Source of the DNA: Planctomycetota bacterium
Lineage (GTDB): Bacteria; Planctomycetota; UBA8742; UBA2392
Assembly (NCBI GenBank): GCA_020425605.1
Contig: JAGQRH010000005.1
Location: forward strand, 75,850-139,849
DNA: 64,000 nt
Direction of reading: 5' to 3'
Shown here: positions 9,369 through 36,553 of the stretch, piece after piece
Position numbering within the stretch: the stretch's first letter is position 1
How the letters are laid out: every line of letters starts with the position of its first letter
The notes under the pieces: model-generated
Databases searched by the model: none
What the model was told of the DNA's origin: nothing
The model's input: only the letters and a program-made list of their open reading frames with translations
Program-made: the position numbers and the translations under genes

Positions 9369-10067
9369 ATGGATGAGCGTTACGTTGAGAGACGCAGGGA
9401 TCTTGATCGCGTGTTCGAACGGGCTAAGCCCATCGAACAGGAGCCCCAATACGTTGACTCTCCCTCGGGCCGGTATCGCCTTGCGGTGACTACCTATTCG
9501 ACGGGACCCAAGTCTTGGAACGTCTGTCGAGGGATCGTCACGGAGGTCGCCAGCGGTGATGTCATCGCTGATGTGAAGCGAAACATCGGTGGCTTCTCGA
9601 ACACGTGGGTGGAACACCCGAACGGCAATGAGTACCTATTGTGTGGCGAGGACTACCAAGGATACAGCACCATCAACTTAACGAAGCGGCAGGTCCACGT
9701 GTACTTTCCCGAGGCGGGATACACTGGCGGCGGATTTTGTTGGTCACAGCCAATGCCCTCCCCGGACAAACTGATGCTCGCCGTTGAGGGCTGCTTCTGG
9801 GCTGCCCCGTACGACCTCGTGTTCTATGACTTTAGGGAACCGGACTCTCTCCCGTACCGAGAACTGAAGCGAGTCGAGGACTCCATGGAGGTAAAGGGTT
9901 GGGCGGACAACGACACATTCGTGATGACTCAAGAGTTCGAAGTTCGTAAGGCGGATGGCGTTCGTTACGACACACTCGACAGGGCTGAGCAGGAACGATT
10001 GAACACAGATTCGTCTTTGGTCGACTACATCTACCCGGAGATTCAGGTTCCACGGCCACCTGCCTAA
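9369..10067 (+). CDS. orphan hypothetical protein (233 aa) in a lower-GC islet
   Basis: ORF 9081..10067 trimmed to ATG 9369 (MDERYVERRRD). Codon usage is visibly less GC-biased than in neighbours. No domain recognised. Confidence 0.5.
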   Translation: MDERYVERRRDLDRVFERAKPIEQEPQYVDSPSGRYRLAVTTYSTGPKSWNVCRGIVTEVASGDVIADVKRNIGGFSNTWVEHPNGNEYLLCGEDYQGYSTINLTKRQVHVYFPEAGYTGGGFCWSQPMPSPDKLMLAVEGCFWAAPYDLVFYDFREPDSLPYRELKRVEDSMEVKGWADNDTFVMTQEFEVRKADGVRYDTLDRAEQERLNTDSSLVDYIYPEIQVPRPPA

Positions 10068-10132
10068 GACTCGTCATTGGCGTCGGAACCGGGACGAACG
10101 GGACAGTCCCGCCCGTCCCGATTGCTGATAGG

Positions 10133-10327
10133 TCAGGCCGCCAATGCCTGCTGGACGGTCAGCCTGCCCGCCTTGATCTCGTTGAGGTGGCCGATGACGG
10201 TGCTGGCCTGTGCACGGTCGAGGTGCTCCAGCCTGCGGCCGAAGAGGCGGTTGCAGAGGCTCTCCGCGAACGTGAAGTCCACGCCCATCGGCTTGAGTTC
10301 GCCGACCAGGCCCTTGATGAAATTCAT
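10133..10327 (-). CDS. small hypothetical protein (64 aa)
   Basis: ORF only. Faint resemblance to phage GemA-like C-terminal helices (RLFGRRLEHLDRAQASTVIGHLNEIK). Not firm. Confidence 0.3.
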   Translation of the reverse strand: MNFIKGLVGELKPMGVDFTFAESLCNRLFGRRLEHLDRAQASTVIGHLNEIKAGRLTVQQALAA

Positions 10328-10403
10328 TTGCTTCTCGCTGACAGCGGCAGATTTCGCTGTGGGCCGAGCCAGACTTGGCCGGGAAGTGCCGGTTACGACG
10401 AAA

Positions 10404-11678
10404 CTACGCGTCCTTCAAAGCTGCCGCCTGGCCGTAGTACCTTGGCTCGATTAGGGCCTTTACGTGGACCTCTGAATCCGCGTACTCGATGTCGAGGATT
10501 TTGCCGTGCTGCTGCAGGTAGGCTAGCAGCTTGCCGTTGCCGGCTGAGAAGGTCCAATCCAGGGCGGTTTCGCGCTCTTCGACCACTTCCTGCACCTTCG
10601 TTGCGAGCGCCTTCAGCCCCTCGCCGGTTTTGGCGCTTACGTCTACGTACTCCGGGTGCAGCATGTGCAGGTGGGTCAGCTGCGGCTGGTCCATCACGTT
10701 GTCGATCTTGTTGAACACCATCAGCGTGCGACGCCCGTCCGCGCCGATTTCGTGCAGCACGTTGTTCACGGCCTCGATCATCTCAACGGCCGCGGGGTGG
10801 CTGGCGTCCACGACATGCAGCAGCAGGTCGGCGTGCAGCACTTCTTCCAGCGTGGCGTGAAAGCTGGCGACCAGCCTGTGGGGCAAATTGCGGATGAAAC
10901 CGACCGTGTCGCTCAGCAGCACCTTGTGGTCCGGCAGCTTCCAGACGCAGGTGCGGGTGTCCAGCGTGGCGAACAGCTTGTCCTCGACGAATACGCCCTC
11001 TTCGGTCAGCGCGTTCATCAGAGTGCTTTTGCCGGCGTTGGTGTAGCCGACGATCGACACCTGAAACAGCTCGAAGCGGCGCTCGACCTCGGTGGCGCGG
11101 CGCTTGTTGATTTCGTCCAGCTCGGACTTCAGCTTGCTGATGCGGTTGCGCAGCAGGCGGCGGTCGACTTCGATCTGTCGCTCACCGGCGCCACCGACGG
11201 CGCCCAGCCCGCCTCGCTGGCGCTCAAGGTGGGTCCAGAGGTTCTTCAGGCGTGGCAGCTCGTACTCGGCCTGCGCCAGTTGCACCTGCACCTTGGCCTG
11301 CCGGGTGCGGACGTGCTGCCCGAAGATGGCGAGAATCAGCTCGGTGCGGTCGAGGACGCTGGCCTTGACCTCGTCCTCGAGCGCGGACTGCTGGTTGGGG
11401 CGCAGCTCGTTGTCGAACACGACGATCTTGGCGCCGGTTTCTTCGACAAGCGCCGCGATCTCGGCCGTCTTGCCCTTGCCCACGTAGGTGCGCGGGGTGA
11501 TCTGCTGCATCTTCTGGTAGGCCTTGCCGACGACCTGCATGCCGGCCGTCTCAGCCAGCGCCTCAAGCTCATCGAGCGGGTCGTCGCCGAACGGCTCGTC
11601 TTCACGCACGGTGGCGCTGACAAGGACCGCAGGGAGTTCGTTGTAGGTGATCTGGTCGAGGATTGTGCGGTCGGTCAT
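10404..11678 (-). CDS. hflX: GTPase HflX
   Basis: Start moved to ATG 11678 (MTDRTILD). HflX N-domain (DRTELILAIFGQHVRTRQAKVQVQLAQAEYELPRL). G1 GYTNAGKST, G3 DTVGF, G4 NKID. Confidence 0.9.
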   Translation of the reverse strand: MTDRTILDQITYNELPAVLVSATVREDEPFGDDPLDELEALAETAGMQVVGKAYQKMQQITPRTYVGKGKTAEIAALVEETGAKIVVFDNELRPNQQSALEDEVKASVLDRTELILAIFGQHVRTRQAKVQVQLAQAEYELPRLKNLWTHLERQRGGLGAVGGAGERQIEVDRRLLRNRISKLKSELDEINKRRATEVERRFELFQVSIVGYTNAGKSTLMNALTEEGVFVEDKLFATLDTRTCVWKLPDHKVLLSDTVGFIRNLPHRLVASFHATLEEVLHADLLLHVVDASHPAAVEMIEAVNNVLHEIGADGRRTLMVFNKIDNVMDQPQLTHLHMLHPEYVDVSAKTGEGLKALATKVQEVVEERETALDWTFSAGNGKLLAYLQQHGKILDIEYADSEVHVKALIEPRYYGQAAALKDA

Positions 11679-11847
11679 GGAATCGGGGTCTCGCGTACGG
11701 CCTGTTAGCAGCATAACGCGGGGGTGTTGCAGGGGTAAGGGCAGTTCACGGTCGACAGTTGACAGTCGACGGTCGGCCCGTCTTTTTCCCCAACGATTCC
11801 CGTCGAAGGTGCGTATAAGTCGGTAGTTACGTACAGAGGATGCCCAA

Positions 11848-13782
11848 TTGGCCATAGCATTCTACATCGAGTACCCGCGCATCACGGCCGTGGAGATTAC
11901 CGGCTCGGCGCGGAAGCCGAAACTAAAGCGCGTGGAAGTGGGCGATCTGCCTGAGCCGCGCAACGAAGACGGCACGCTGATGGTGGACCGTCAAGGCTAC
12001 CTCAATGAGCAGGTCTCGGCCTTCGTGAAGGACCGCAAGCTGTCCGGCGGCAAGGCCATCCTGCTTGCAGGGCCGGAAGCCATGCGCTACCGCGAGGTCA
12101 AGCTGGCCTTCAGCGACAAGCGCAACATCGACAAAGTGCTGCAGTACCAGGTCGAAGGCCTGATCCCGAACATTCCGATTGAGCAACTGACCGTCGGCTA
12201 CAACATTCTGCAGAACGAGCCGGATGGCGCGCGCCTGCTGGTTCACGCGGCCGACAAGGATTACATCCGACAGCGCATCATCGCGCTGGAAGAAGCAGGC
12301 TGCACGGTTGATGCCGTGGACAGCAACCTGTCCGGCACTATGAACATCGGGCTGCTGCATGAGGCGTTTGCCAAGGGCTCAGCGCCTGCGCTCTGGCTCG
12401 ACTTTGCAGGTACCAGCGCGACGGTTGCGGTGGTTCACGACGGCGAAGTTCAGACGGCGCGCGTGTTTCTGGCCCCGTATCTGGCAGGCGCCAGCGGCGC
12501 GACAGCCACGGCCGAAGAAGCCAAGGCGGCCGGCAAGAAGGCCGCTGCCGAAGCGGAGCGACGTGCGCGCGAGTTTGAAGCGGGCGACCTGGACCAACTC
12601 GATCACATGGACATGGACGAAGAGTACGTGCTGGATACCTCAGCCACGGACTCGGCGACCTTGCCGAAGTCGGAGAGTGTGAACATCGGCGAGGCCGAGG
12701 TCGCGGACCGCATCCGGCACATGAGCCGTGACGAGCTGCAGAAGTTCATCACGCGCGTGGCGGTTGAGGCCAAGCGCACGATGCTGATTTCGCGCTTCGA
12801 CGCGGACCCTGAGCGTGTGGTTGTCTCGGGCCTCGGTGTCGCGGGCGACGAGCTGGCCGGGCTGCTGGGCGACGAGCTGGGGATTGACGATGCGCGCGCC
12901 ATCGAGCTGGTGGATGCAGTCAACCCGCCCGGCAACTCGATCGACACGCCGGACGTGGGCGAGCTTTCCTACCTGTGCGGCACAGCGCTGAAGGGCGTCG
13001 GGCGCGACTATACGGGGATTGATTTCCGGTACGGTGACCTGGCGGCCGGCACGCTGATGGACTACGCGAAGACGCCGCTGGCCTTCACTGCGACGCTGGT
13101 ACTGCTGTTCGCGGGTATCATGTTCCTGATCAGCTACACCCACGCGCGGCAGTATGAGCGCGACATCGCCGCACTGCGCGACCAGGACCTCGGGCCAAAG
13201 TACTTCTTCACGGCTGCGTTCTTCCACACCAAAAAGGCTGACGAGAAGTCTGCACCTTCGGCAGCGCTCAAGAAGCTGCGCGATTACCCGGACATGTCGG
13301 ATGACCCAGGCAGCGAGATCCGGCTTGCGCATAAGCGTATGAAAGACACGCAGGCGATACTTCAGGGCCTTACCACAGACCTTTATGCACGACCGCACCC
13401 GGCAGATCTGATTTTGGTCGAGATTCTGAAGACCATCCAGAATGCCAAGCCGAGCTACGACTTTGCGCTGATGCGTTGCGACATTCTCGAGTCCGGTGTG
13501 ACGATCCAGTACATGGCATCAATCACTGAAACACCGGCCGAGCGACTACGGGCAGGTGCGCCCGAGCAAAAAGAAGCGGACCGCATGTTTTATGCCTTCC
13601 GTGACCTTGCTGACGCGCACCCTGAGTGGTTTGAGGGCGCGCCAACGCAGGATGAGGGCAGCAAGACTCAAGTCGGGCCGGAAGGCCGTGAGGCGAACCA
13701 GATGACACTGAAGTTGAAGCTCAAAAAGATCGAGCCGCCAAAGAAGAAGCCCGCGACCGCGCCCAAGACAGGAGCCAAGTAA
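11848..13782 (+). CDS. PilM/GspL-like actin-fold assembly-platform protein with TM segment and large C-terminal domain
   Basis: TTG start. N-terminal ~210 aa follow the PilM/GspL layout (ITAVEITGS..., LLAGPEAMRYREVKLAF, LLVHAADKDYIRQRIIALEEAGCTVDAVD, LWLDFAGTSATVAVV). Acidic linker. One TM (LAFTATLVLLFAGIMFLISY). Confidence 0.5.
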   Translation: MAIAFYIEYPRITAVEITGSARKPKLKRVEVGDLPEPRNEDGTLMVDRQGYLNEQVSAFVKDRKLSGGKAILLAGPEAMRYREVKLAFSDKRNIDKVLQYQVEGLIPNIPIEQLTVGYNILQNEPDGARLLVHAADKDYIRQRIIALEEAGCTVDAVDSNLSGTMNIGLLHEAFAKGSAPALWLDFAGTSATVAVVHDGEVQTARVFLAPYLAGASGATATAEEAKAAGKKAAAEAERRAREFEAGDLDQLDHMDMDEEYVLDTSATDSATLPKSESVNIGEAEVADRIRHMSRDELQKFITRVAVEAKRTMLISRFDADPERVVVSGLGVAGDELAGLLGDELGIDDARAIELVDAVNPPGNSIDTPDVGELSYLCGTALKGVGRDYTGIDFRYGDLAAGTLMDYAKTPLAFTATLVLLFAGIMFLISYTHARQYERDIAALRDQDLGPKYFFTAAFFHTKKADEKSAPSAALKKLRDYPDMSDDPGSEIRLAHKRMKDTQAILQGLTTDLYARPHPADLILVEILKTIQNAKPSYDFALMRCDILESGVTIQYMASITETPAERLRAGAPEQKEADRMFYAFRDLADAHPEWFEGAPTQDEGSKTQVGPEGREANQMTLKLKLKKIEPPKKKPATAPKTGAK

Positions 13783-14381
13783 TGGAAGGCAACGAAGGCT
13801 CCAAGTACATGACGATCTACATCGTGGCCTGCTTCGCGCTCGCGATGGTGGCCTTGATGGGCTACAAATTCGCCAACCAGGATCGCGAGGAACTCTCGAA
13901 CGAGTACGTGGACCTCGCCGGCAAGTTCGCGGACATGAGTGCTGCCTACGCGCCGAACATCAACGACTACTACCGCAAGGTTGAAGACGGGCTGATCAAG
14001 CCGCCTGACCAGAAGATGATGGACGCCACGCAGGTCACGCTGACCAAGCTGGCCGAGGATTCGCTGATCAAGGACGGCTCCGGCGCGGATGACCACCTCG
14101 ACATGGGTTCGATGAAGGAAAAGGTCGTCAACAAGCTCTACATCGAATACAGCCTGCAGGTCGAGCTGAAGAACGTGACCCAGACGCAGTGGGCGGTGTT
14201 CCTGTCTCAGTCACAGCACGCTACGCGTGAGTATGCGAGCCTTGAGTCCATAAAGATCGCGCGCAGTGAGAACCGCTATGCGCGTATCGATATCTCAAAG
14301 GACCACAGTTCCGACTACAGCCTGTGGAACGTGACGATCAATTTTGTGTGGTACGGGCCGCTCAACAAGGAAAAGGCCTAG
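13782..14381 (+). CDS. bitopic membrane protein, PilO/GspM-like by position and topology
   Basis: ATG overlaps the upstream TAA (TAATG). N-terminal TM (IYIVACFALAMVALMGY) followed by a coiled-coil and alpha/beta region. Confidence 0.4.
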   Translation: MEGNEGSKYMTIYIVACFALAMVALMGYKFANQDREELSNEYVDLAGKFADMSAAYAPNINDYYRKVEDGLIKPPDQKMMDATQVTLTKLAEDSLIKDGSGADDHLDMGSMKEKVVNKLYIEYSLQVELKNVTQTQWAVFLSQSQHATREYASLESIKIARSENRYARIDISKDHSSDYSLWNVTINFVWYGPLNKEKA

Positions 14382-14396
14382 GACCGTTTCGATGCG

Positions 14397-14436
14397 AAAA
14401 ACAAACCCCGCCGTTGCCGGCGGGGTTTGTTTTTTG
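14397..14436. terminator. bidirectional intrinsic terminator
   Basis: AAAACAAACCCCGCCG-ttgc-CGGCGGGGTTTGTTTTTT between convergent genes. Confidence 0.75.
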
Positions 14437-14441
14437 GATGG

Positions 14442-15818
14442 CTACTTGGTCAGGTCTCGTACTCTGACCTTGGCGCCGTCGCGAAGCAATGATTGGCCGC
14501 GCACGACGATCAGCGCGCCTTCTTTGACGCCCTGGTTCTTGCCCGCATTGGCCGGCGCGGCTTTCAGCTCAAAGCTGCCTTCGCTGTTTACGCCGCGTCG
14601 GCGGGATACGTCGATGCGTCGTGCGGTCCCGGTATCCGGCTCTTTGCCCGGGTCTACCACCCAGATGACTTCGGCATCGCCCACAATGGCTGCACCCGGC
14701 ACGAGCAGTACCTGCTTTTCGACGTTGGTTGAAATGCGCGCGTCCACCCACATGCCCGGCCGGGTGGCCAGCAACTCTCCCTTGCGTACGCGCTCGGCCG
14801 TCGAGGTGATAGCCTTGCGCGAGTCCGGGTCCATCTGCTGCAGCATCGCCTTGTGGGCGCCTTCGGCGTCAACGTCTTCAGGCTGAACGATGCGCACGGT
14901 GGCAACGATCATGCCGCGTGTCTGGTCAACGATCGGTGACACGCGGTCGACGTAGCCGAGGAAACGGGCGTTGGGGAATGCCGTAACGGAAAGCAGGACG
15001 GCCTGTGCCGTGTCCAGGTCGACCTTTTCCATCAGCCCGAACAGGCCGATGGCCGGGATGCGCTTTGGCTCGCGCAGGTCTTTCAGGCCGGCTTCGGCGA
15101 CGTCGAGCTTGACTTCAAGCTCGCGGAAGTCCGCGATGCGGAACGCCAGTGCGTTGGCGCCCACAAGCTCATTCGCGCGGATGTTGCGCTCGGTGATCAC
15201 GCCGGCGATCGGCGCCTTGATGACGGTGTAGGCGAGCTGCAGTTGGTTCACGGCCAGTTCGCCGCGGGCTTTGTCGAGTGCGAGGCTGGAGGTCTCGACC
15301 TGGTTGGCGGCCTTGTCGAATTCGAGTTTGGCGGCTTCGTACGCGTCCTTGCTGTAAAGGCGCGAGGCTTCGGGATTCTTTGGGTCGAAGTACTTCTCGA
15401 TGCGTTCAAAGTCGCTGCGCTTCTTGGCGGCGTCGAGCATGTCCTTGCGATGCGCAAGTTCGGATTCCTGCACGGCAAGCATGGAGGCCGTGACCTGCAA
15501 CTCGACTTTGCCGCGGTCGAGGCGCGCGAGCACCTGTCCCTGCTGTACGTGATCGCCGACGTCAACCAGCACGTCGTTGGCGACTTCGCTGATCTGGGCG
15601 TACACATCCGCCAGCGTATGCGCCTCGATGCGGCCGGTGCTGCGCTCGAACTCGGAGATGTTGTCCCGACGGGCCGGGACTACCTCTACGAGTGGGTCCT
15701 TGCGCTCGACTTCTTCGCCGTTCCCGCCCCATTTGCCCTTACCGCCGTAGTCGCCACCGCCGCACGCCGAAACGAGCAGCAATAGGGCCACGCCGATGAA
15801 TGCAGTCTGTTTGCCCAT
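14442..15818 (-). CDS. efflux membrane-fusion (HlyD/RND adaptor) lipoprotein
   Basis: Start moved to ATG 15818. Lipobox LLLVSAC. Lipoyl half-motifs VGDHVQQGQVLARLD and IKAPIAGVITERNI flank a long coiled coil. Confidence 0.85.
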   Translation of the reverse strand: MGKQTAFIGVALLLLVSACGGGDYGGKGKWGGNGEEVERKDPLVEVVPARRDNISEFERSTGRIEAHTLADVYAQISEVANDVLVDVGDHVQQGQVLARLDRGKVELQVTASMLAVQESELAHRKDMLDAAKKRSDFERIEKYFDPKNPEASRLYSKDAYEAAKLEFDKAANQVETSSLALDKARGELAVNQLQLAYTVIKAPIAGVITERNIRANELVGANALAFRIADFRELEVKLDVAEAGLKDLREPKRIPAIGLFGLMEKVDLDTAQAVLLSVTAFPNARFLGYVDRVSPIVDQTRGMIVATVRIVQPEDVDAEGAHKAMLQQMDPDSRKAITSTAERVRKGELLATRPGMWVDARISTNVEKQVLLVPGAAIVGDAEVIWVVDPGKEPDTGTARRIDVSRRRGVNSEGSFELKAAPANAGKNQGVKEGALIVVRGQSLLRDGAKVRVRDLTK

Positions 15819-27692: not shown

Positions 27693-29114
27693 GTGACGGC
27701 TGAGCATCTCAAACCATTTGAACGTTTCCGGGGAAAACGCGGGCTGGTAATGGGCCTGGGCGTTTTCGGTGGTGGCATTGAGTCCGCGAAGTTCCTTTCC
27801 AGGTACTGCTCGCACGTTCTGGTCACTGACCTGCGCGATGAGAGCGTTCTGAAAGAGAGCATCGATGCGCTCGAAGGTCTGCGCATCGAGTACCGCCTTG
27901 GTGAGCATCGCAAGCAGGACTTTGAGCAGGCCGACGTGGTGATTCACTCCCCGGCCGTACGCCCCGACAACCCGCTGTTGCAGGCCGCGCGCCACCACGG
28001 CGCCGAAGTGACCATGGAGATGAGCCTCTTCATCGAGGCCTGCCCGGCAAAGACGGTCGGCATCACCGGCAGCAACGGCAAGACCACGACTGCGCTGCTG
28101 GCCTACGAGATGCTGTGCGAAGTCATGCAGCGCGCCCAGCCGGAGCTTGAGGGCAGGTGGGCCGAGCCGGCAGGGGAGCCGCCCCGCGGCAATGGCAAGG
28201 TCTGGCTCGGCGGCAACTGCGGCGAGCCGCTGCTGAACAAGCTGGAGGGTATGACGTCCGACGATGTGGTCGTGCTTGAGTTGTCCAGCTTCCAGCTTCA
28301 GGACTGGCACCGCATCAAGAAGTCCAGCGACATCAGTGTCATCACCAACATCACGCCCAACCACCTTGACTGGCACAAAGACATGGCCGAGTACATCTGG
28401 GCCAAGGCGGCAATTTATGTGTATTCAACCGGCTCGGTGATCTGCAACTCCGAGCGCGATGAGCTTGCTCAATTGCCGCGGCCCAATGGCGTGGAGTTCC
28501 GTGGCTACAGTACGCATGATGCAGTTGCTCCGCGAGAGACCCTACGACTGCCGGGACAATTCAACTGGTCGAATGCCTGCGCTGCCATGGTGGCTTGCAA
28601 GGCAATCTGCGATGCGGATCTAGTGAACGGACTGAAGCGCTTTCGTGGTGTTGAACACCGTCTGGAGTTCTGCGGAGAAGTGAACGGCGCGCGATGCTTC
28701 AATGACAGCATTGCCACCACGCCGGAGAGCACGATTGCGGGCTTGAGCGCGTTTGACTCCGGCGTCCATCTGCTGCTTGGCGGCAGTGACAAGGGTTTGA
28801 GCTACGACGCGCTGGCGAAGATCATTGCCGAACACTGTGGAATCAAGGGTGTGTACCTGCAGGGCGCCAATGCGGATGCTATCGAAGCGGCAATCCTGCG
28901 GACAGGAATGGCCGCGCCACTGACGCGTTTTGCCACTTTCGACGCCGCATGCGACGCCGCGTTTGCCGCGCTGGAACCCGGCGACGTGTTCCTCATGTCG
29001 CCGGCCTCGGCCAGCTTCTATGAATACGCGCCGCACAAGCGCTTCACAAACTTCGAACACCGTGGACGTTATTTCAAAACGTTAGTACAAGCACACGCTT
29101 CGAAAACTACGTGA
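27693..29114 (+). CDS. murD: UDP-N-acetylmuramoylalanine--D-glutamate ligase
   Basis: GTG start. GLGVFGGG, ITGSNGKTTT, LELSSFQL, Mur ligase C-domain. Confidence 0.9.
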   Translation: MTAEHLKPFERFRGKRGLVMGLGVFGGGIESAKFLSRYCSHVLVTDLRDESVLKESIDALEGLRIEYRLGEHRKQDFEQADVVIHSPAVRPDNPLLQAARHHGAEVTMEMSLFIEACPAKTVGITGSNGKTTTALLAYEMLCEVMQRAQPELEGRWAEPAGEPPRGNGKVWLGGNCGEPLLNKLEGMTSDDVVVLELSSFQLQDWHRIKKSSDISVITNITPNHLDWHKDMAEYIWAKAAIYVYSTGSVICNSERDELAQLPRPNGVEFRGYSTHDAVAPRETLRLPGQFNWSNACAAMVACKAICDADLVNGLKRFRGVEHRLEFCGEVNGARCFNDSIATTPESTIAGLSAFDSGVHLLLGGSDKGLSYDALAKIIAEHCGIKGVYLQGANADAIEAAILRTGMAAPLTRFATFDAACDAAFAALEPGDVFLMSPASASFYEYAPHKRFTNFEHRGRYFKTLVQAHASKTT

Positions 29115-29123
29115 ACTTGTCGC

Positions 29124-29591
29124 ATGACGACCAAGATCCTGGCACCACACTACCTGCGTCTCGAGTGCGAAATCCGCGCTGATATGGAGACGGTGTGGCG
29201 CGCCCTTACGGATCTGCATGAGCTTCGCGCATGGTGGGCCGTTCCCGTGATCAGCCACAAACAGGATGTTGGCGGCGGCTTCGAGCTGCGCTACGTCGGA
29301 CGTGATCGCGTGGACAGGTTCGTCTACACCACATGGGACAAGAACTGGCGAATCGGCGGCCGCTGGAGCTACAGCTGGCTGGATGGCGAAGTTGCCGAAA
29401 TGCTGATCCTGACCGAGATTGAAGGCGGCGTGCGCGTCACGATCGAACACACGAATTTCGAAAGTTTCGGCGCCGACCAGCAGCGCATCTTCGGCTACCA
29501 CAAGAGCGAGACACGCGCACGCCTTGAGCGCCTGAAGGCTTGGGCGGAAGTCCGACTTCCGGCTACGCAGGCCCAGATTCCAGTCGTCTGA
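29124..29591 (+). CDS. SRPBCC/AHSA1-like family protein
   Basis: LECEIRADMETVWRALTDLHELRAWW N-terminus typical of SRPBCC ligand-binding folds. Confidence 0.7.
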   Translation: MTTKILAPHYLRLECEIRADMETVWRALTDLHELRAWWAVPVISHKQDVGGGFELRYVGRDRVDRFVYTTWDKNWRIGGRWSYSWLDGEVAEMLILTEIEGGVRVTIEHTNFESFGADQQRIFGYHKSETRARLERLKAWAEVRLPATQAQIPVV

Positions 29592-30197
29592 TTACTTCGC
29601 TTCGTCCTTCTCGACGTCTTCGCCCAGTTCACGGGCGATCTCGCGGTCGAGCTCCTCGCGCGTCAGCTTCTTTCGCTCTTCGGTGTTCACGCCGATCATC
29701 TGGTCGATCTCGTCGTCCGTGACCAGTTGCTCGCCGGCGACGCTGTCTGTCTCAAACAGTGAGTCCTTGCTCATGTCCAGGAAGAGGTCCATGCGCTGGC
29801 TCATGGTGTCGGCCTGCATCATGGCGTGCTCGAAGTTCTTCTGCGTCGCCTCAAGATCGGTAGTCTTGTAGACCTCGTTGATGCTCTTGCTGACCACGCC
29901 CATGGATTCAGCGAAGACGCTGAAACTCTCGGCCTGGTTCTTCATCTGGAAGGCCGCCTCGATCGTCAGCAACTGGCGCTCAAGCATGCGGCGCTGGAAC
30001 GTGGTGGCCTTGAGCGACTTGCGCACGAACGCGAGCTGGTCAGCCGCGCCGATGCGTGCGGCCTCGCGGGCCTTGCCCAGCCATTCTTCTTCGCTCTTGC
30101 TGAGCTCTTTCATCTGGCGGCGGATGCGCTGGATGCCCTTCTTGATTTCCATATCGCGCGCGATGCGTCGCTCTTCTTTGGATTTGAATATGCCCAT
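29592..30197 (-). CDS. ESCRT-III/PspA-superfamily protein C (201 aa)
   Basis: MGIFKSK N-terminus. Basic helical hairpin region (EEWLGKAREAARIGAADQLAFVRKSLKATTFQRRMLERQL). Acidic C-terminal half ending in an amphipathic helix (REELDREIARELGED). Last gene of the operon. Confidence 0.6.
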   Translation of the reverse strand: MGIFKSKEERRIARDMEIKKGIQRIRRQMKELSKSEEEWLGKAREAARIGAADQLAFVRKSLKATTFQRRMLERQLLTIEAAFQMKNQAESFSVFAESMGVVSKSINEVYKTTDLEATQKNFEHAMMQADTMSQRMDLFLDMSKDSLFETDSVAGEQLVTDDEIDQMIGVNTEERKKLTREELDREIARELGEDVEKDEAK

Positions 30198-30259
30198 TCG
30201 TCAGCCTTTCTTGTCCTGCGAGCAGTCTAACTGTTTTTGCCTGCCCGGTCCGCAGGGTT

Positions 30260-31078
30260 TCATTCCACGACGTGGTAGTTGGCTTCGCCTTGTGCGAGGC
30301 GCTTCTTCGTGTGGCTGGTCATACGTTCGGACTTGCGGATCGCTGCCTCGATGAAGTCGCGGTGATCGCGTAGTCGGCCGCCCAGGTAGGCACGGGCGAA
30401 GCGGGCCCTGTCAGTCGCCGTCACCAGTGACGCGGGAGCCGAATGCAGCAGCGCGGCAACGTCTTTCACGCGCCAGCGCCGGGTTACGCGCTTGCGGATG
30501 TCAGCCCGGTTCAGGTCCGTCACGTACAGCTCGTCGTCGTGGCCCACGCGAATATGCACGAGGTAGAAATCGCGATGATTCACCCCGCCGTCATGCATGC
30601 GGCGCAGGATCCGACCCAGCTCAACGGTGAGCTGCCAGCGGCGCGCGGGCTGCGGGCACTCAGTGAATTCTTCCAGCAACAGCTTCTGCAGGCTTCTCGG
30701 TGCGCTTAGCCCGACGGTCAGCAGCGCCGCGCGTTTGACGACACCGCTCTCGACTTCCTCAATGCACGCGGCGGGGCGCATGGTCGGCACGCGCAGTTCG
30801 TGCAGTCGTTGAAGCACGTGCCATTCGCGTGAGGCGGGGGAATCGAAACCCCGGGCGAACAGGCCCGCAAAACGGGGCTCAGGCTCGATCTCGCGGTATA
30901 GCTTCAGGTAGAGGGTAGTCCCGGCGGCGGTGACCAACCGGTAGGTCTGTCGCGACTCGAGCCGGGCCTTGATGGTTTCAAGGTCGCCCCTGGCGGCCAG
31001 CGCATTGACATCCAGCAGGCCCTCGGACTCCAGCTCGGAACGCAGCGCGGGGTCAACCAGCAGGCGGGTCTCTCGCAT
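30260..31078 (-). CDS. protein-kinase-like enzyme, Kdo/WaaP (lipopolysaccharide kinase) family
   Basis: TLYLKLYRE (N-lobe Lys), catalytic loop GVNHRDFYLVHIRV, metal-binding LYVTDLNRA. Confidence 0.7.
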   Translation of the reverse strand: MRETRLLVDPALRSELESEGLLDVNALAARGDLETIKARLESRQTYRLVTAAGTTLYLKLYREIEPEPRFAGLFARGFDSPASREWHVLQRLHELRVPTMRPAACIEEVESGVVKRAALLTVGLSAPRSLQKLLLEEFTECPQPARRWQLTVELGRILRRMHDGGVNHRDFYLVHIRVGHDDELYVTDLNRADIRKRVTRRWRVKDVAALLHSAPASLVTATDRARFARAYLGGRLRDHRDFIEAAIRKSERMTSHTKKRLAQGEANYHVVE

Positions 31079-31084
31079 CAGCGG

Positions 31085-32323
31085 CTAGTCGTCCTCAACG
31101 CTCCAGTCGAGGTAGCGTTGCATCTCCTGCGGGCTGGTGCCCGGCCGGATGTAGGTCTTTGCGCGTTCAAAGTCCGCGAGTGTCAGCGGGCGTACTTTCA
31201 CCTGGTAGTTGCGCGTAGCGGCGAGTCCGGTGTCGATCAGGTCGGGCAGGTCCTCGTTCAACTGGCCGATCATCTGCGACGTCGCCTGCTTGCAGAGGCG
31301 CTCGATTTCTCGGCCGGAATAGCCGACCGTGTCGTCGATCAGTTCCTTGAGGTCAAACTCAAGCTGATAGCCCTTCTTCAGAAGCTGGATGCTGAGGATG
31401 GCTTCACGTGTCTCTTCATCGGGCAGCGGAATCAGGATCTGCTTCTCGAAGCGGGACATCACGGCTGCGTCAATTTCCCACGGCCGGTTGGTTGCGGCGA
31501 TGGTGAGCACGAAGATGTCGCTGCGGCCTTTCTCGGCCAGCCCGTCAAGCTCGGCCAAAATGGTCGAAAGAATGCGGCGCTCTGCCCCGGTCTGCTCGGA
31601 GTCGCGGTTGCTGGTCAGTGACTCGAATTCGTCGAGGAACACGACGCTGGGGCTGTTGTCGCGCGCGGCGCCATAGATCTCGCTGATGATCTTGCTGCTT
31701 TCGCCGAAATACTTGCTCAGCACGCCGCTGACTTTCACGTTGAAGAACAGCGCCTGGCCTTCGGTGGTGACCTTCAGGCTATTGCTGGTGGCCGCTGCAA
31801 GCAGGGTCTTGCCGGTGCCCGGCGGGCCGTAGAACAGCATGTTTCGGAAGGTCGTGATCTTCACGCCCTCGGGTGGCTTCGCGAGCGACAGGCCGAGCGT
31901 GTACTTGATGTCGCGCTTGGTTTCTTCAAGTCCACCGATATCGTCCCAGGTGATCGTGCTGGTGTGGACCAGCGCCGAGACGGCTTCGCTGATGTTGCTT
32001 TCGGGCTCGCCAGCGGTGGTTTCGTGGCTGCGATTCTCATCCACGTGGCTGCTGGGGGGAGACGGCAGCTTGGCCTTGCCGCTTTCCGGCTTCTCGATGC
32101 CGACTTCGCGCAGGCGCCGGGCGAAATCTCGGTACTCGATTGCCTTGCGCTTCCGGGCGTACTCCATGCTGCGCGACTGGGCGTGCTCGGCAAACTTGAA
32201 CATGGTCTTGCTGGCCGACTCGAAGTTCGCGGCGGCCGTCTCCGAATCGCCTGCCTTCCAGGCCATCTTGGCCTTGTGCAGGGCGTCGTCGCAGGCGCGT
32301 TTGAGTTTGGGTCCTAAGTCCAT
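31085..32323 (-). CDS. MIT-domain + single AAA+ ATPase, Vps4/CdvC-like
   Basis: N-terminal three-helix segment (LKRACDDALHKAKMAWKAGDSETAAANFESASKTMFKFAE...RKRKAIEYRDFARRLRE). Walker A GPPGTGKT, pore loop SKYFGES, Walker B VVFLDEFES, SRH ATNRPWEIDAAVMSRFEKQILIPLPDEETR. Confidence 0.8.
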   Translation of the reverse strand: MDLGPKLKRACDDALHKAKMAWKAGDSETAAANFESASKTMFKFAEHAQSRSMEYARKRKAIEYRDFARRLREVGIEKPESGKAKLPSPPSSHVDENRSHETTAGEPESNISEAVSALVHTSTITWDDIGGLEETKRDIKYTLGLSLAKPPEGVKITTFRNMLFYGPPGTGKTLLAAATSNSLKVTTEGQALFFNVKVSGVLSKYFGESSKIISEIYGAARDNSPSVVFLDEFESLTSNRDSEQTGAERRILSTILAELDGLAEKGRSDIFVLTIAATNRPWEIDAAVMSRFEKQILIPLPDEETREAILSIQLLKKGYQLEFDLKELIDDTVGYSGREIERLCKQATSQMIGQLNEDLPDLIDTGLAATRNYQVKVRPLTLADFERAKTYIRPGTSPQEMQRYLDWSVEDD

Positions 32324-32345
32324 CTTGTTCCGAAGCGTTGGTCGA

Positions 32346-32450
32346 CTAGTGCGTGTACGAGTAGCTAAAGAACATCACTGCGAGCGTCGCACAAAGTACG
32401 AACAGCAGGAACACCCATTCTTCAGTTCGGACTTTGCGACTCTTGAACAT
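32346..32450 (-). CDS. 34-aa transmembrane micro-ORF (not in ORF track)
   Basis: ATG 32450 to TAG 32346. MFKSRKVRTEEWVFLLFVLCATLAVMFFSYSYTH has one TM. It fills most of the 180-nt gap between operon genes. RBS is weak. Confidence 0.3.
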   Translation of the reverse strand: MFKSRKVRTEEWVFLLFVLCATLAVMFFSYSYTH

Positions 32451-32503
32451 CAGTAGCTCACAGGTTCCAAGTCCACTACGGAAGCATGCGCTCCCGAACG
32501 GCC

Positions 32504-33121
32504 CTAAATTGTTCCTTCTTCGGATTCAAGCTTGGCGCGCAACTCCGTTTCGGCCTTGAGTGCCTGGTCAAAGTCGCCGCCTTCTTCGGCTTCGTTGATG
32601 GTGTCGATCTCGGACAGGAAGCGCACCTTCTCAGGATCGCTGTCGTCCATGTCACCCTCGACCTCAAGCCCAAGGTCATCGAGCGTTGCATTCAGCTCGT
32701 CCATGTAGGCTTCCTCGTCGATCTGCTGCAGGGCCAGCTTGGCATCGAGCCCGCTGCTGCGGATACGCTGCAGGAGCTTGTTGACGCCGTCCTTGTCTTT
32801 GCGTTTCTCGAGACGCTCGAGACCGCGCACGTACTTCTTGAGCGCGATACCCTCAAGGTTGCTGACCTTGGCGGCCCGGCGCTGGAAGGCGAAGTCGTAC
32901 TTGATGTCCTTCAGCTCTTCCCAGACGTAGTCGACTTCGATGCTGTTGCCCTCGCGGCGCGCGCGCTTGATCTGTTCAATCAGCGACGCCTGGCGCGTGC
33001 TGAGCTTGCGCATCTCCATGAAATACTTGCGGCGCTCGCGCTCGACCTCGCGCAGCTTGACCTTCAGCTTCCGCAGGTCGACCTTGCTGCCGAACAGGCT
33101 GGCAAAGAATTCGGATACCAT
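32504..33121 (-). CDS. ESCRT-III/Snf7-like protein B (205 aa)
   Basis: Snf7/CHMP4-like N-terminus MVSEFFASLFGSK. Basic hairpin region. Acidic C-terminal half. Terminal ETELRAKLESEE resembles a MIM1 helix. Confidence 0.6.
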   Translation of the reverse strand: MVSEFFASLFGSKVDLRKLKVKLREVERERRKYFMEMRKLSTRQASLIEQIKRARREGNSIEVDYVWEELKDIKYDFAFQRRAAKVSNLEGIALKKYVRGLERLEKRKDKDGVNKLLQRIRSSGLDAKLALQQIDEEAYMDELNATLDDLGLEVEGDMDDSDPEKVRFLSEIDTINEAEEGGDFDQALKAETELRAKLESEEGTI

Positions 33122-33124
33122 CGG

Positions 33125-33796
33125 CTACTCCACCTGCGCTTCCGGCTCATTCCGGGAATTGTCTTCTTCGTCATCGCGCGCGCTTTCGCGGCGCATGATT
33201 TCTTCCTCGATCTCGCGCAGCTCGGCATCGGTCGTGCGCGCGGGCGGGGGCGCTTCGCCCATGATTTCCTTTTCCAGCTTGCGCAGCTCGTCCTTGTCCT
33301 TGTTCGTGAGCACGTCGTCGCGGCTCTGGATCACGCCTTCGCCGGTATTGACCGAATCGCGGAACTTCTCCATGCCTTCTTCGAAATCGAGCATCACGCG
33401 TTCCACCACGCTCTGTTCGATCCCGCGCAGGTCCATTGCTTCCATGGCCTGGATCTTGCCGACCAGGTTCATGTGCAGCTCGATGTTCTTGTTCAGGATG
33501 TCGGCCTTCAGCTTCAGGTTTCCCATCTGCGTGCGCGTGCGTTTGATCTGAAGCAGCACGAACTCTTTCTCGCGGTCGCCGACGCGGCCGGACTTGATGT
33601 TCTCCATGCTCGCGCGCTCAGACAGCTCCAGGCGCGCGAGTTCCTGGCGCGTCTTGCGCAGCTCGACTTCGTTCTGGGTGATCAGCTCGTCGAGGTGCTC
33701 TAGCATCTCCCGCGTGGAATGGGCGTCCTTGATCACCTGCTCGGCGTCGCCGGAAGTGCCTCGCAGCATCTGCTTGATTTGGTCCAGTAGGCTCAT
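33125..33796 (-). CDS. ESCRT-III/PspA-superfamily protein A (223 aa)
   Basis: ATG directly follows the upstream TGA (TGAATG). MSLLDQIKQML N-terminus, long heptad helices, acidic tail with DAELREIEEEIMRRE. Confidence 0.55.
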   Translation of the reverse strand: MSLLDQIKQMLRGTSGDAEQVIKDAHSTREMLEHLDELITQNEVELRKTRQELARLELSERASMENIKSGRVGDREKEFVLLQIKRTRTQMGNLKLKADILNKNIELHMNLVGKIQAMEAMDLRGIEQSVVERVMLDFEEGMEKFRDSVNTGEGVIQSRDDVLTNKDKDELRKLEKEIMGEAPPPARTTDAELREIEEEIMRRESARDDEEDNSRNEPEAQVE

Positions 33797-34573
33797 TCAG
33801 GCCCTTACACTTTCAAATCGGTCGCGCTGGATAATCAGGTCGCCGCCCACCGTCTTTACATCTATGCCCGGTGTACGCTCGGCGTACAGCATCGCGCGGT
33901 CTGTGACAAGGTCACGTCCCACGGCCGTGCGAGTGGCGAGGTCATCGATCAGGATAAATCCGCCCGGTTCCTTCAGCTCATCGGCTGCAGAAAGCGCGGC
34001 ATCGACACGTGCGACCTTCTGGTCGATGGGCTCCGGGTCGAAGAGATTCTCAAACAAGGCAGGCAGGATCGCGCCATCTCCCGGCGGAGTGACAGACCAG
34101 CCCGGATCGGCATACTCAATCAGCGCCGCGCGCCAGTTCGGGCCGCCGCTAAGGGCTCGCATCAACTCGTCGCTGTGGCCGACTTCAATACTGTCGCGGA
34201 CGCCGGCTATGCCCATGATGAAGTAGATGTCCGGCCGAAGTGGCGCGAGTGACCAGCGGACAGTTTCGTGGATTGTCTCGGGTGTAAAGCGGCGTTTTGT
34301 GAACGAAAAGTCCAGCACGACGCATACCTTGACGGTGGCCAGGCCCAGCATCGGCTTATGCAGCAGGCCGACGCTCTCTCGGCGGGTAAAGTTGCCCGTG
34401 CCTGAAGGAGAAAGGTCACCTGAGCGGTAACTGCGGCGGCTGACTCGATTTGGGTCAAAATCGTAGAGGGAACCTTCGGCCGGATGAGGCAACATGCGCT
34501 GGCGCACAATGCGCGATTCGAGCCCGGAAAAGAGGCTCTGCATGGCAGACAGCGAATTGCTTCGATCGGTCAT
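33797..34573 (-). CDS. hypothetical protein, first gene of the ESCRT-like operon (possible degenerate vWA-like alpha/beta fold)
   Basis: ORF 33797..35200 trimmed to ATG 34573 because the upstream part overlaps the divergent ABC gene. VCVVLDFSFTKR is reminiscent of a DxSxS/T MIDAS strand. Confidence 0.5.
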   Translation of the reverse strand: MTDRSNSLSAMQSLFSGLESRIVRQRMLPHPAEGSLYDFDPNRVSRRSYRSGDLSPSGTGNFTRRESVGLLHKPMLGLATVKVCVVLDFSFTKRRFTPETIHETVRWSLAPLRPDIYFIMGIAGVRDSIEVGHSDELMRALSGGPNWRAALIEYADPGWSVTPPGDGAILPALFENLFDPEPIDQKVARVDAALSAADELKEPGGFILIDDLATRTAVGRDLVTDRAMLYAERTPGIDVKTVGGDLIIQRDRFESVRA

Positions 34574-34603
34574 AAGTCCCTGTCGATGGCCGACTTCGCA
34601 TTG

Positions 34604-34609
34604 AGTATA
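34604..34609 (-). promoter_or_regulatory. candidate -10 box (TATACT) for the ESCRT-like operon
   Basis: The only AT-rich patch in the 132-nt divergent intergenic region. About 30 nt upstream of ATG 34573. The -35 is weak. Confidence 0.25.
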
Positions 34610-34705
34610 GCTAATTTTGTCGTCGTTACAGGGGCGGCGAGTTGCGGTCGGCCCGGCACGGCCCACAATGGGGCGCAGCCCGGGAGGCGACTTGGAAGGT
34701 AGCAG

Positions 34706-36553
34706 TTGGCGGAAACGTATCACGACGACGATGAATTTCTGGGCAAGGCGTACGACGCCAGGCTGATCAAGCGCCTGATTCCCTACGCGCGTCCATACCT
34801 CGGCCTGGTTCTGTTCGGGACGTTTTTCATGCTGTTCGCGGCCGCATGCGAACTTGGCATCCCGCTCATTGTTAAGGAAACCATCAACGGTCCTTTCACG
34901 GTGCTGGGAGAATCCGCCACCGGGGAGGCTGCAAAAGAGGCGGCCTGGACGAAACTGGGCTGGTTCGCGTTTGGATTCATGGGGCTGGTTGTCATCCAGT
35001 TCTTTGCGCGTTTCGGCAACACCTACCTGTTCCAGAAGCTCGGGCAGAAGGCAGTGCTGGATTTGCGACAGGACGCCTATGCGCACATCCAGCGCTTGCC
35101 ATTGCGGTTCTTTGATCGAAACCCCGTAGGCCGACTTGTCACGCGCGTCACCAGTGACGTGGAAGCGATCGGCGAAGTGTTCGCTTCCGGGCTCGTCCAA
35201 CTCGCCGGTGATGCGCTGACGGTGCTTGGAGCCTTGGCCCTGATGCTGATGCTGAGCTGGCAGCTTGCGCTGTTTGTCGTGGGCGCAATCCCGGTCATGG
35301 CACTGCTGACGTGGATTTTCCGCGGGCGTGCACGAGGCTCATTCCGTGAAATGCGGGTCAAGCTTGCCGTCGTGAACAGCTTCCTGAACGAGACGATCCA
35401 GGGTTGGCGCATCACCCGCATTTTCGGCACCGAGAAACAGATGGCGAAGAAGTTTGATGAACGCAGTGCCGACTACCGCGAGTCAACGTACCGAACAGTC
35501 TTCAACTTCAGCATCTTCTTCCCGATCGTCGAAATCGCGGGAACCATCTGCGTGATGCTGGTCGTGTGGTGGGGGACGCGCAGCATTTTCAACCAGACGC
35601 TCGACTACGGCACCTTCTTCGCCTTCTTCCTCTACACACCGATGATGTTCCGGCCGATCCGGGAAATGAGCGAAAAGTACAACGTGCTGCAGAGCGCGAT
35701 GGCCAGCGCCGAGCGGCTGTTCCGGATTCTTGATACCAAGAACGATGTTGCCGACCCGGCCGAGGCGAAGGCGCCGCCCATCACCGGCGAAATCGAGTTC
35801 CGCGACGTGTGGTTCAGCTACAACGCAACGGATGACAGCGAGCCCGAATGGGTGTTGAAGGGCGTGAGCTTCAAGGTGCCCAGCGGCTCATCCATGGCGC
35901 TGGTGGGTGCGACCGGCAGTGGCAAGACAACCATCATCAGCCTGTTGATGCGTTTCTACGACATCCAGAAGGGCAGCATTCTCATTGATGGCGTGGACAT
36001 CCGCGAAATGTCCAAGGCGCACCTGCGCGAGTCCTTCAGCCTTGTGCTGCAGGACGTGTTCTTGTTTGCGGGCACAGTGCTGGACAACGTGCGCCTCGGG
36101 CATTCAGAGATCTCACGCGAGCAGGTTGAGAAGGCGGCACGCATTGTCCACGCGCACGAGTTCATCATGGGCCTCAGGGATGGTTACGACGCGGTCGTTG
36201 CCGAACGCGGGGCGACCTTCAGCGCCGGGCAGCGACAACTACTGGCATTCGCGCGGGCGCTGGCATTTGAGCCGAAGATTCTGGTGCTGGACGAGGCCAC
36301 ATCGAACATAGACAGCGAAACCGAGGCGCTGATTCAGGATGCGCTGACGCAGATGATGCACGGACGCACGGCCGTCGTCGTCGCCCACCGCCTCAGCACC
36401 ATTACCGACAGCGACAACATTCTCGTGCTGCATAAGGGGCAGGTCGTTGAACAAGGCAGCCATGCCGAGTTGCTCCAGCAGGGCGGTCGTTACGCCAAGC
36501 TCTACCAGCTGCAGTTCGCCAACGGCACCAAAGCCGAAACCAAGGCGGGGTAG
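34706..36553 (+). CDS. ABC exporter, fused permease/ATPase (MsbA/type I exporter-like)
   Basis: TTG start. Six N-terminal TMs. Walker A GATGSGKTT, signature FSAGQRQLLAFARAL, Walker B ILVLDEATS, H-loop VVAHRLST. Confidence 0.9.
   Translation: MAETYHDDDEFLGKAYDARLIKRLIPYARPYLGLVLFGTFFMLFAAACELGIPLIVKETINGPFTVLGESATGEAAKEAAWTKLGWFAFGFMGLVVIQFFARFGNTYLFQKLGQKAVLDLRQDAYAHIQRLPLRFFDRNPVGRLVTRVTSDVEAIGEVFASGLVQLAGDALTVLGALALMLMLSWQLALFVVGAIPVMALLTWIFRGRARGSFREMRVKLAVVNSFLNETIQGWRITRIFGTEKQMAKKFDERSADYRESTYRTVFNFSIFFPIVEIAGTICVMLVVWWGTRSIFNQTLDYGTFFAFFLYTPMMFRPIREMSEKYNVLQSAMASAERLFRILDTKNDVADPAEAKAPPITGEIEFRDVWFSYNATDDSEPEWVLKGVSFKVPSGSSMALVGATGSGKTTIISLLMRFYDIQKGSILIDGVDIREMSKAHLRESFSLVLQDVFLFAGTVLDNVRLGHSEISREQVEKAARIVHAHEFIMGLRDGYDAVVAERGATFSAGQRQLLAFARALAFEPKILVLDEATSNIDSETEALIQDALTQMMHGRTAVVVAHRLSTITDSDNILVLHKGQVVEQGSHAELLQQGGRYAKLYQLQFANGTKAETKAG

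Follow-up and report, generated by a model that had tools for sequence, protein, structure and literature searches.

A 64,000-nucleotide (nt) stretch of planctomycete DNA (positions 75,850 to 139,849 of contig JAGQRH010000005.1, assembly GCA_020425605.1; hereafter the window) contains an operon whose products probably form a bacterial counterpart of the machine, made up of ESCRT-III and Vps4, that remodels membranes. Three of its genes specify ESCRT-III-like coiled-coil proteins (ccA, ccB and ccC), one a MIT-AAA ATPase, one a kinase and one, the first, a protein that we refer to as hyp. We base this reading on domain and fold assignments, on the intact catalytic motifs of the ATPase and on a gene linkage that is conserved among related genomes. 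An initial annotation of the window, made from the letters alone, had proposed a module of this type, and our sequence comparisons and structure models support that proposal in terms of domain architecture, predicted fold and the conservation of gene linkage; its further suggestion of a role in division or budding of a host lacking FtsZ is speculation. The operon and its genes are as follows, with protein lengths in amino acids (aa).

29592-34573, minus strand: the operon, six packed genes in the order hyp-ccA-ccB-ATPase-kinase-ccC
33797..34573, minus strand: hyp, 258 aa, start codon ATG at 34573, first gene of the operon
33125..33796, minus strand: ccA, 223 aa, putative ESCRT-III-like protein A
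32504..33121, minus strand: ccB, 205 aa, putative ESCRT-III-like protein B
31085..32323, minus strand: ATPase, 412 aa, MIT-AAA protein
30260..31078, minus strand: kinase, 272 aa, Kdo/WaaP family
29592..30197, minus strand: ccC, 201 aa, predicted ESCRT-III (Snf7-type) protein C

A Vps4-like architecture of the ATPase, with a MIT domain, a variable linker and a second region of homology, is supported by profile and alignment evidence. The protein is composed of a MIT-like three-helix domain, the linker, one AAA cassette and a C-terminal helix, and three of these regions can be placed on the DNA.

32084..32323, minus strand: MIT-like N-terminal domain, ATPase residues 1-80, from a 17-member profile
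31424..31840, minus strand: AAA core, residues 162-300, Pfam AAA match
31100..31204, minus strand: C-terminal helix region, residues 374-408, Pfam Vps4_C E=0.011

A MIT-like N-domain had been read from the translation by eye, and the profile of residues 1-80 bears this out, as its top seven PDB matches are all MIT domains of VPS4A or VPS4B (best E=7e-4, covering positions 5-75); the Pfam MIT model matches weakly (2 of 17 members, E ~0.06). Mouse VPS4B (2zam) aligns to ATPase residues 7-353 in a single stretch, and in the family alignment the linker after the MIT domain varies in length, as in Vps4. The single AAA cassette (Pfam AAA, E=3.8e-34, plus a weak lid match) contains a Walker A motif, GPPGTGKT, a Walker B motif, DEFE, a pore loop, KYFG, and the sensor-1 residue N279, all invariant in 20 homologues; because of this invariance the protein is predicted to be an active substrate-threading unfoldase. 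The motif RPGRFD is found in Cdc48, PAN and FtsH, and the meiotic clade has an RRFEKR type of motif without the PG. The second region of homology of the operon ATPase ends in S290-R291-F292-E-K, the family invariant being S-R-F-(E/D)-K, and an alignment with p97 has a 2-residue gap at the PG of p97. A profile of the C-terminal half gives higher per-domain scores with katanin (86 bits) and spastin (84) than with p97 D2 (65.6) or p97 D1 (58). As katanin and spastin align best and lack the Vps4 beta-domain, the operon ATPase also appears to be without that domain. Residues 108-407 align with positions 84-364 of the 370-position NCBIfam CdvC model (NF041006; 2.3e-44). The Vps4_C match scores 16.2 bits, against a gathering cut-off of 21.3, and a similar C-terminal motif can likewise be aligned with p97 D2; five of the listed ATPase homologues carry a precomputed PF09336 match.

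For the coiled-coil proteins, membership of the ESCRT-III superfamily is best supported for ccC, through sequence matches; for ccB it is plausible and for ccA less well supported, in both cases through predicted models. The ccC protein matches Pfam Snf7 (PF03357) over residues 17-142 with E=3.1e-4, 15 of 25 members of its family match the same model at E<0.01 (best 1.6e-6), and several homologues carry a precomputed PF03357 match. CHMP3 and CHMP2A are its only PDB sequence matches, and for the 25-member profile the best matches are Snf7, CHMP3 and CHMP2A. The N-terminus of ccC reads MGIFKSKEERR (M-G/A-x-F-K-S is invariant in the family), and its C-terminal amphipathic helix, LDREIARELGE, is kept across the family. 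A relaxed pattern for MIT-interacting motif 1 (MIM1) occurs in 24 of 80 ccC tails versus 2.0 in shuffles.

The ccB family is small, with 57 representatives among 1.8 billion clustered proteins. Its AlphaFold model (predicted local distance difference test [pLDDT] 87.8, predicted template-modelling score 0.78) has a helix alpha0 at residues 3-9 and a hairpin at 16-56/60-106, the arms of which are 41 and 47 aa long, followed by alpha4, alpha5 and alpha6 at 110-149, 163-180 and 184-204. For ccA (pLDDT 75.9 overall, 86-95 in the hairpin) the predicted helices are alpha0 at 3-11, a hairpin at 28-68/74-124 and three more at 128-153, 165-178 and 189-213. Both models show the ESCRT-III helix order, namely alpha0, an alpha1-alpha2/3 hairpin, alpha4, alpha5 and a C-terminal helix. 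In Foldseek searches of 350,542 PDB chains, ranks 1-2 for ccB were Sulfolobus islandicus CdvB (E 0.06, probability 0.90), with further matches to CdvB2 filaments, CHMP2A-CHMP3, the closed form of CdvB, Vipp1, CHMP1B and Loki CHMP4-7; for ccA, ranks 1-3 were Vipp1 and ranks 5, 7, 10 and 11 CdvB2 (best E 0.16). Profile-profile alignment with hhalign connects the families in the register of the hairpin, with E=2.2e-4 for ccB against ccC (using a deeper ccB profile) and E=0.0034 for ccA against ccB. Shallower comparisons gave 0.11 (alignments A1 vs A2), 0.008 (A1 vs A3) and 0.17 (A2 vs A3), and pairwise BLASTP among ccA, ccB and ccC gave nothing significant. The net charges of the N- and C-terminal halves are +9/-16 in ccB and +8/-14 in ccC; the basic-then-acidic layout that had been ascribed to all three proteins is therefore present in these two and only partly in ccA (0/-16), the tail of which is acidic and partly proline-rich. 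In the ccA family (alignment A2), 3 of 19 members weakly match Pfam HAAS (E ~0.002), reportedly the helix-turn-helix (HTH)-associated alpha-helical signalling domain as defined in Ravi et al. 2024, and four members weakly match GvpK (E ~0.003); both are probably coiled-coil noise.

The gene linkage extends across the phylum. The host is an uncultured lineage of Planctomycetota represented by a metagenome-assembled genome (MAG), and the planctomycete origin that the initial annotation had entertained agrees with the labels of the record and of the homologues. Proteins identical to ccC and ccA are deposited as hypothetical proteins, KDB90_04210 and KDB90_04230 respectively, from a MAG labelled 'Planctomycetes bacterium', and nearly all named homologues of ccC, ccA and the ATPase come from Planctomycetota MAGs, with two short contigs labelled Nitrospira. 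When the ccC profile was run against a set in which each GTDB species is represented by a single genome, 272 species proved to have relatives. The 80 best matches among these were inspected; nearly all are labelled Planctomycetota, including Brocadiia, Phycisphaerae and Tepidisphaerales, and three are labelled Sumerlaeota, Acidobacteriota or Vicinamibacterales. The three loci concerned, L034 (Sumerlaeota), L066 (Acidobacteriota) and L073 (Vicinamibacterales, on a 373-kb contig), have relatives of ccC, ccA, ccB and the second ATPase described below, and could reflect lateral transfer or mis-binning.

Our survey of gene neighbourhoods found the cluster order conserved across divergent Planctomycetota. 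All members of the close clade, with ATPases 71-99% identical, keep the order hyp-ccA-ccB-ATPase-(kinase)-ccC, and lineages with ATPases 50-58% identical have (hyp)-ccA-ccB-ATPase-ccC-ATPase2. Other variants have neither ccA nor ccB, or are without the first ATPase, and Tepidisphaerales-type loci often consist of ccC and a kinase only. Among the 37 loci with full 10-kb flanks, ccC lies beside an ATPase of the family (the first or its paralogue) in 32, beside the first ATPase in 27, beside both ccA and ccB in 22, beside hyp in 32, beside a kinase in 26 and beside an SPFH gene in 13. From locus to locus, the components diverge in step with one another (Pearson correlation 0.92-0.97).

Distant lineages add genes downstream, namely a second AAA ATPase, an SPFH/Band_7 protein, a membrane protein and a Hanks-type kinase. 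Such an extension downstream of ccC is seen at 9989-15311 of locus L001 and also in L036, L041, L054 and L068. The second ATPase is of the RPGRFD type, exceeds the Vps4_C cut-off (22.5 bits against 21.3) and has a TPR/MIT-like N-domain, the nature of which is ambiguous, with matches to TPR consensus proteins and to one MIT domain (of a chitin synthase, E 0.0026). Of the other products, the SPFH/Band_7 protein is ~630 aa long and the membrane protein ~300 aa, and the Hanks-type Ser/Thr kinase contains an RDD domain.

The first gene of the operon defines a family of its own. No Pfam, NCBIfam or PDB match was found for hyp, and no relatives were detectable beyond its family, in the members of which the motif FDPE..K..R is invariant and a C-terminal tail, ...GG..I.(K/Q)R.R, is conserved. 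The reading frame is open upstream to a TTG at 35200; similarity among orthologues begins at residues 1-4 of the form starting with ATG at 34573, the length of which is 258 aa and not 259 as first counted. Orthologues stand directly upstream of ccA in both close and distant Planctomycetota. At 4918-6429 of L001, the N-terminus of a hyp-family protein bears a fused MerR-type HTH domain (Pfam MerR_1, 3.7e-06), a hint of a DNA-binding or regulatory link for hyp.

The kinase, first described as 'PK-like', is by its profile match a member of the Kdo/WaaP lipopolysaccharide kinase family (PF06293, E=9e-27, 94.3 bits against a cut-off of 21.3); its NCBIfam RfaP score is 125 bits, under the equivalog cut-off of 170. 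It occurs in 18 related loci and is found neither in L019-L022 nor in any distant cluster, so that its position inside the operon is restricted to the sub-clade of the window.

Several results weigh against the reading of the operon as an ESCRT-III/Vps4 counterpart. The Snf7 score of ccC (20.9 bits) lies under the gathering cut-off of 27.3. By sequence, neither ccA nor ccB significantly matches an ESCRT-III or PspA family, scanning every member of the ccA, ccB and hyp families against Pfam yielded neither Snf7 nor PspA, and PDB sequence and profile searches with ccA, ccB and hyp gave no meaningful matches. None of the Foldseek matches of ccA and ccB reaches E<=0.001, their template-modelling scores are 0.2-0.45, and designed helical bundles are interleaved among the natural matches; long helical hairpins may also resemble each other through convergence. 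For these reasons of significance and interleaving, we regard the two models as consistent with an ESCRT-III fold and not as proof of it. Of the three ESCRT-III-like proteins first proposed, ccC thus stands by sequence, and ccA and ccB stand in the helix layout of their models but not in the significance of their structural matches. The strict MIM1 pattern, (D/E)xxLxxRLxxL(K/R), is absent from all 80 ccC, 34 ccA and 35 ccB tails. The ATPase has one arginine (S290-R291) at the arginine-finger position, where Vps4 has two. Its CdvC score of 151.8 bits is far under the equivalog cut-off of 650, so it is not an orthologue of crenarchaeal CdvC, and over the AAA domain the NCBIfam models for CDC48 (169 bits) and PAN (166) score above CdvC (152). 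The hallmarks of the Vps4/katanin/spastin clade claimed for this protein are suggested by its SRFEK motif and by the preference of its C-terminal half for katanin and spastin, but not by its CdvC score or its single arginine finger. With respect to the cluster, in five of the 37 full-flank loci no ATPase lies within 10 kb of ccC. At 8001-9284 of L002, a 493-kb metagenome contig, an ATPase orthologue (59% identical) has no coiled-coil or hyp genes within 8 kb; as this ATPase stands alone, the linkage is not universal. Finally, all carriers seen are MAGs, and there were no cultured isolates among the best 80 of the 272 genomes matched by the ccC profile.

We infer the following mechanism for the machine. 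The ccA, ccB and ccC proteins would attach to the inner membrane on its cytoplasmic side through the short hydrophobic N-terminal alpha0 and the basic alpha1-alpha2 hairpins and would co-polymerise into composite filaments. The MIT domain of the ATPase may dock on the acidic C-terminal tails or helices of ccA, ccB and ccC, whereupon the hexameric ATPase would use ATP to thread subunits through its pore, which has the invariant KYFG loop. Threading would disassemble the filament or exchange its subunits and thereby lead to membrane constriction, scission or repair. A lineage-specific protein, hyp is the best candidate for a recruiter or nucleator that acts at specific sites, and the embedded kinase or kinases are candidate regulators. 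The SPFH proteins of related clusters point to a possible coupling with membrane microdomains. Which cellular process might be served can be suggested only tentatively. Membrane repair or maintenance is a possible function, and some process other than those named here deserves the same modest weight; biogenesis of invaginations or vesicles seems slightly less probable, and cell division or budding is doubtful.

Some of the evidence can be read in other ways. It is possible, if on balance unlikely, that the operon encodes an envelope-stress or membrane-maintenance system resembling PspA/Vipp1, in which protective carpets or rods are recycled by the AAA ATPase and no scission takes place. Vipp1 filaments are the top three structural matches of ccA, SPFH/Band_7 partners occur in the 13 full-flank loci as they do in PspA loci, and membrane repair is considered the original function of the superfamily (PMC7619361). 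However, a search for PspA_IM30 gave no match at E<=1 for ccA, ccB or ccC, and none among members of their families, whereas ccC matches Snf7. The partner, moreover, is a MIT-AAA unfoldase and not an enhancer-binding protein of the PspF type. The PspA hairpin is longer than that of ESCRT-III, and the hairpin helices of ccA and ccB, at ~41-51 aa, are nearer to ESCRT-III.

In a second alternative, this same machine would specifically carry out cytokinesis or budding without FtsZ in these planctomycetes, much as Cdv does in archaea. The main division protein of planctomycetes is unknown and ftsZ is reported to be absent from all Planctomycetes genomes (PMC6952346); the cluster has a Cdv-like architecture, with several ESCRT-III paralogues and one MIT-AAA ATPase, and the family is present in MAGs labelled Brocadiia, Phycisphaerae and Tepidisphaerales. 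We nevertheless consider this role improbable. The best 80 of the 272 genome matches include no cultured planctomycete, and Planctopirus limnophila was scored as Cdv-negative in an older survey (PMC4164004, Table 1), which argues against a universal role in division. The gene content of the cluster also differs between lineages, which is unusual for an essential divisome, and where both systems coexist ESCRT-III usually has other roles (PMC7619361). If the cluster does form the division machinery of at least part of the Planctomycetota, an ESCRT-III/Vps4-type cytokinetic apparatus operates in Bacteria, and the partnership of ESCRT-III with a MIT-AAA ATPase would either predate the split between archaea and bacteria or have been anciently exchanged between these domains.

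It is also conceivable, with a very low probability, that the operon combines generic coiled coils with a Cdc48/PAN-like quality-control ATPase, that its likeness to ESCRT-III and Vps4 is convergent or superficial and that it has nothing to do with membranes. The higher CDC48 and PAN scores of the AAA domain and the lack of significant matches for ccA and ccB would fit such a system. The matches of the N-domain, in contrast, are specific to MIT and those of ccC to Snf7/CHMP; structures belonging to the ESCRT-III superfamily are the top natural Foldseek matches of two independent models, the ATPase is conserved beside the coiled-coil proteins, and the wider clusters contain SPFH and transmembrane partners. 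An anti-phage defence island around an IetA-like AAA ATPase was rejected and is scarcely credible, since the matches of the ATPase to PADLOC IetA (115.7 bits) and NCBIfam IteA (108 bits, against a cut-off of 510) reflect only generic classical-AAA similarity, neither the other operon proteins tested nor the L001 SPFH protein matched PADLOC, no IetS protease was found, the cluster is syntenic and co-inherited across the phylum and not patchy, and no viral relatives were found.

The layout of the operon is close to that first described. All seven open reading frames (ORFs) reported on the minus strand are present at the coordinates given for them, and direct reading of the sequence confirmed the hyp/ccA junction as TGAATG, the ccA/ccB junction as TAG+3 nt+ATG and the ATPase/kinase junction as TAG+6 nt+ATG. 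The near-zero spacing claimed for the whole operon applies to these three junctions, but ccB and the ATPase are 180 nt apart and the kinase and ccC 62 nt apart; the latter spacer has a purine-rich stretch upstream of the ccC ATG. Third-position G+C content is 0.79-0.85 for ccC, the kinase and the ATPase, which were picked by a composition-based gene caller, and ccA, ccB and hyp are absent from its picks. We regard all six ORFs as real genes, because dozens of related genomes contain orthologues of every one of them with the order conserved. G+C content matches the flanks, as had been stated (0.60-0.62 in the operon vs 0.59-0.64 over the whole window). With this flat composition, no viral relatives and conservation across the phylum, the cluster looks native to its host. 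A mobile or viral origin was rejected, there being no relatives in viral contigs and no shift in G+C content.

The seventh ORF, a 34-aa micro-ORF that had been counted as a gene, is probably not one and was rejected. It lies in the gap between ccB and the ATPase.

32324..32503, minus strand: lineage-specific 180-nt spacer, containing the 34-aa micro-ORF at 32346-32450

Neither the peptide nor the spacer has a tblastn or blastn match in 82 related loci, and in the closest relative, L004 (ATPase 99% identical), ccB and the ATPase are only 9 nt apart. The locus tags from KDB90_04210 (ccC) to KDB90_04230 (ccA) fit five genes only, assuming a step of 5, and the predicted RNA fold of the spacer is unexceptional (z=-0.11). 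Across relatives the ccB-ATPase junction is a hot spot for insertions, with inserts at 7467-7538 of L003, 7744-7827 of L005, 2514-2597 of L009, 7635-7700 of L012 and 7420-7830 of L007. Several relatives have unrelated long imperfect hairpins here, made of short tandem units with arms of 24-38 nt that are 80-92% complementary; in L007 and L008 a 498-nt insert encodes a protein of the 23S_rRNA_IVP family (Pfam 4e-28), and the junctions of L004 and L015 measure 9 and 3 nt, respectively. Such elements might adjust the proportion between structural subunits and ATPase.

Genes on the plus strand flank the operon, with an AHSA1-family gene ending at 29591 and an ABC transporter gene starting at 34706. 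The former (AHSA1/SRPBCC family, 29124-29591) is convergent with ccC, the two stops abutting with 0 nt between them, and the latter is divergent from hyp across the gap in which the promoter presumably lies.

34574..34705, no strand assigned: presumed promoter region, the divergent intergenic gap between hyp and the plus-strand ABC transporter gene

A sigma-70 consensus scan of 34574..34705 gave no match, and a scan for promoters and terminators gave counts at or near those expected from shuffles. A solitary MurD-like ORF, named from its translation alone, lies near the operon at 27693-29114, outside any dcw-type cluster.

These findings bear on the evolutionary history of the ESCRT machinery. 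Recent reviews describe the toolkit of ESCRT-III and a Vps4-like ATPase as restricted to archaea and eukaryotes, and a review from 2025 states that a Vps4-like ATPase appears to be absent in bacteria (PMC7619361); for one bacterial phylum, the cluster described here would contradict this absence. Planctomycetes are reported to have no FtsZ, form elaborate membrane invaginations and divide and shape their membranes by unknown mechanisms (PMC6952346). The cluster is a testable candidate for both of these problems, division and membrane shaping, and it defines four new protein families that can now be sought in cultured, genetically tractable planctomycetes.

Among known systems, the archaeal Cdv machinery of Sulfolobales and Thaumarchaeota is similar in that several paralogues with an ESCRT-III fold, predicted in the planctomycete case, share a cluster with one MIT-AAA ATPase. 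For ccB the best structural matches are CdvB and CdvB2, an end-to-end alignment of the CdvC hidden Markov model (HMM) covers the AAA cassette and C-terminal helix of the operon ATPase, and FtsZ is missing, or is reported to be missing, from the hosts of both systems. However, the operon contains no gene for CdvA (a PRC-barrel protein) and begins instead with the unrelated hyp; its ATPase falls far under the CdvC cut-off and has one arginine finger, and ccA and ccB are too divergent for a match by sequence. Planctomycete clusters differ further in their kinase, SPFH and second-ATPase partners and in their host, a diderm bacterium with peptidoglycan genes.

The likeness to eukaryotic and Asgard ESCRT-III is carried by ccC, which matches Snf7, has CHMP3, CHMP2A and Snf7 as its best solved structures and starts with MG(L/I)FKS, resembling the MGLFGK of CHMP3. 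Basic N-terminal and acidic C-terminal halves are shared as well (in part by ccA), and the MIT domain of the ATPase matches those of VPS4A/B. In contrast to these systems, the neighbourhood of the operon has no ESCRT-I, ESCRT-II or ubiquitin components, the planctomycete tails are without the strict MIM1, and the ATPase, unlike eukaryotic Vps4, apparently has no beta-domain.

With PspA/Vipp1 (IM30), the proteins appear to share an ESCRT-III superfamily fold, Vipp1 filaments being the top structural matches of ccA, together with a bacterial host and, at some planctomycete loci, SPFH partners. Links of this SPFH/Band_7 class with PspA and with ESCRT systems of archaea have been reported before (PMC10936438). 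The differences are that the operon proteins have no PspA_IM30 HMM match, that the partner is a MIT-AAA unfoldase instead of PspF, PspBC or Toastrack proteins and that three divergent paralogues are encoded in one operon.

In the literature that could be searched, we came across no account of an ESCRT-III/Vps4-like cluster in planctomycetes, one long paper that names these terms being covered only in part. The study by Ravi et al. in 2024 reported VPS4-like AAA+ ATPases that were transferred to bacteria, such as ACB74714.1, and some bacterial proteins of the PspA/Snf7 clade that are associated with AAA+ ATPases, such as OGG56892.1, and suggested ATP-dependent membrane remodelling (PMC11237479). 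As described there, snf7 is replaced in the first case by a TPR+6TM protein, and in the second the Snf7 homologue has a transmembrane segment and sits with an ABC transporter. By these descriptions, such cases are a partial precedent and are set apart from the hyp-ccA-ccB-MIT-AAA-ccC cluster of planctomycetes. The latter is a phylum-wide, vertically inherited bacterial cluster that would link three ESCRT-III-fold paralogues and a MIT-AAA ATPase with an accessory set made up of a novel first-gene protein, SPFH proteins, a second AAA ATPase and kinases.

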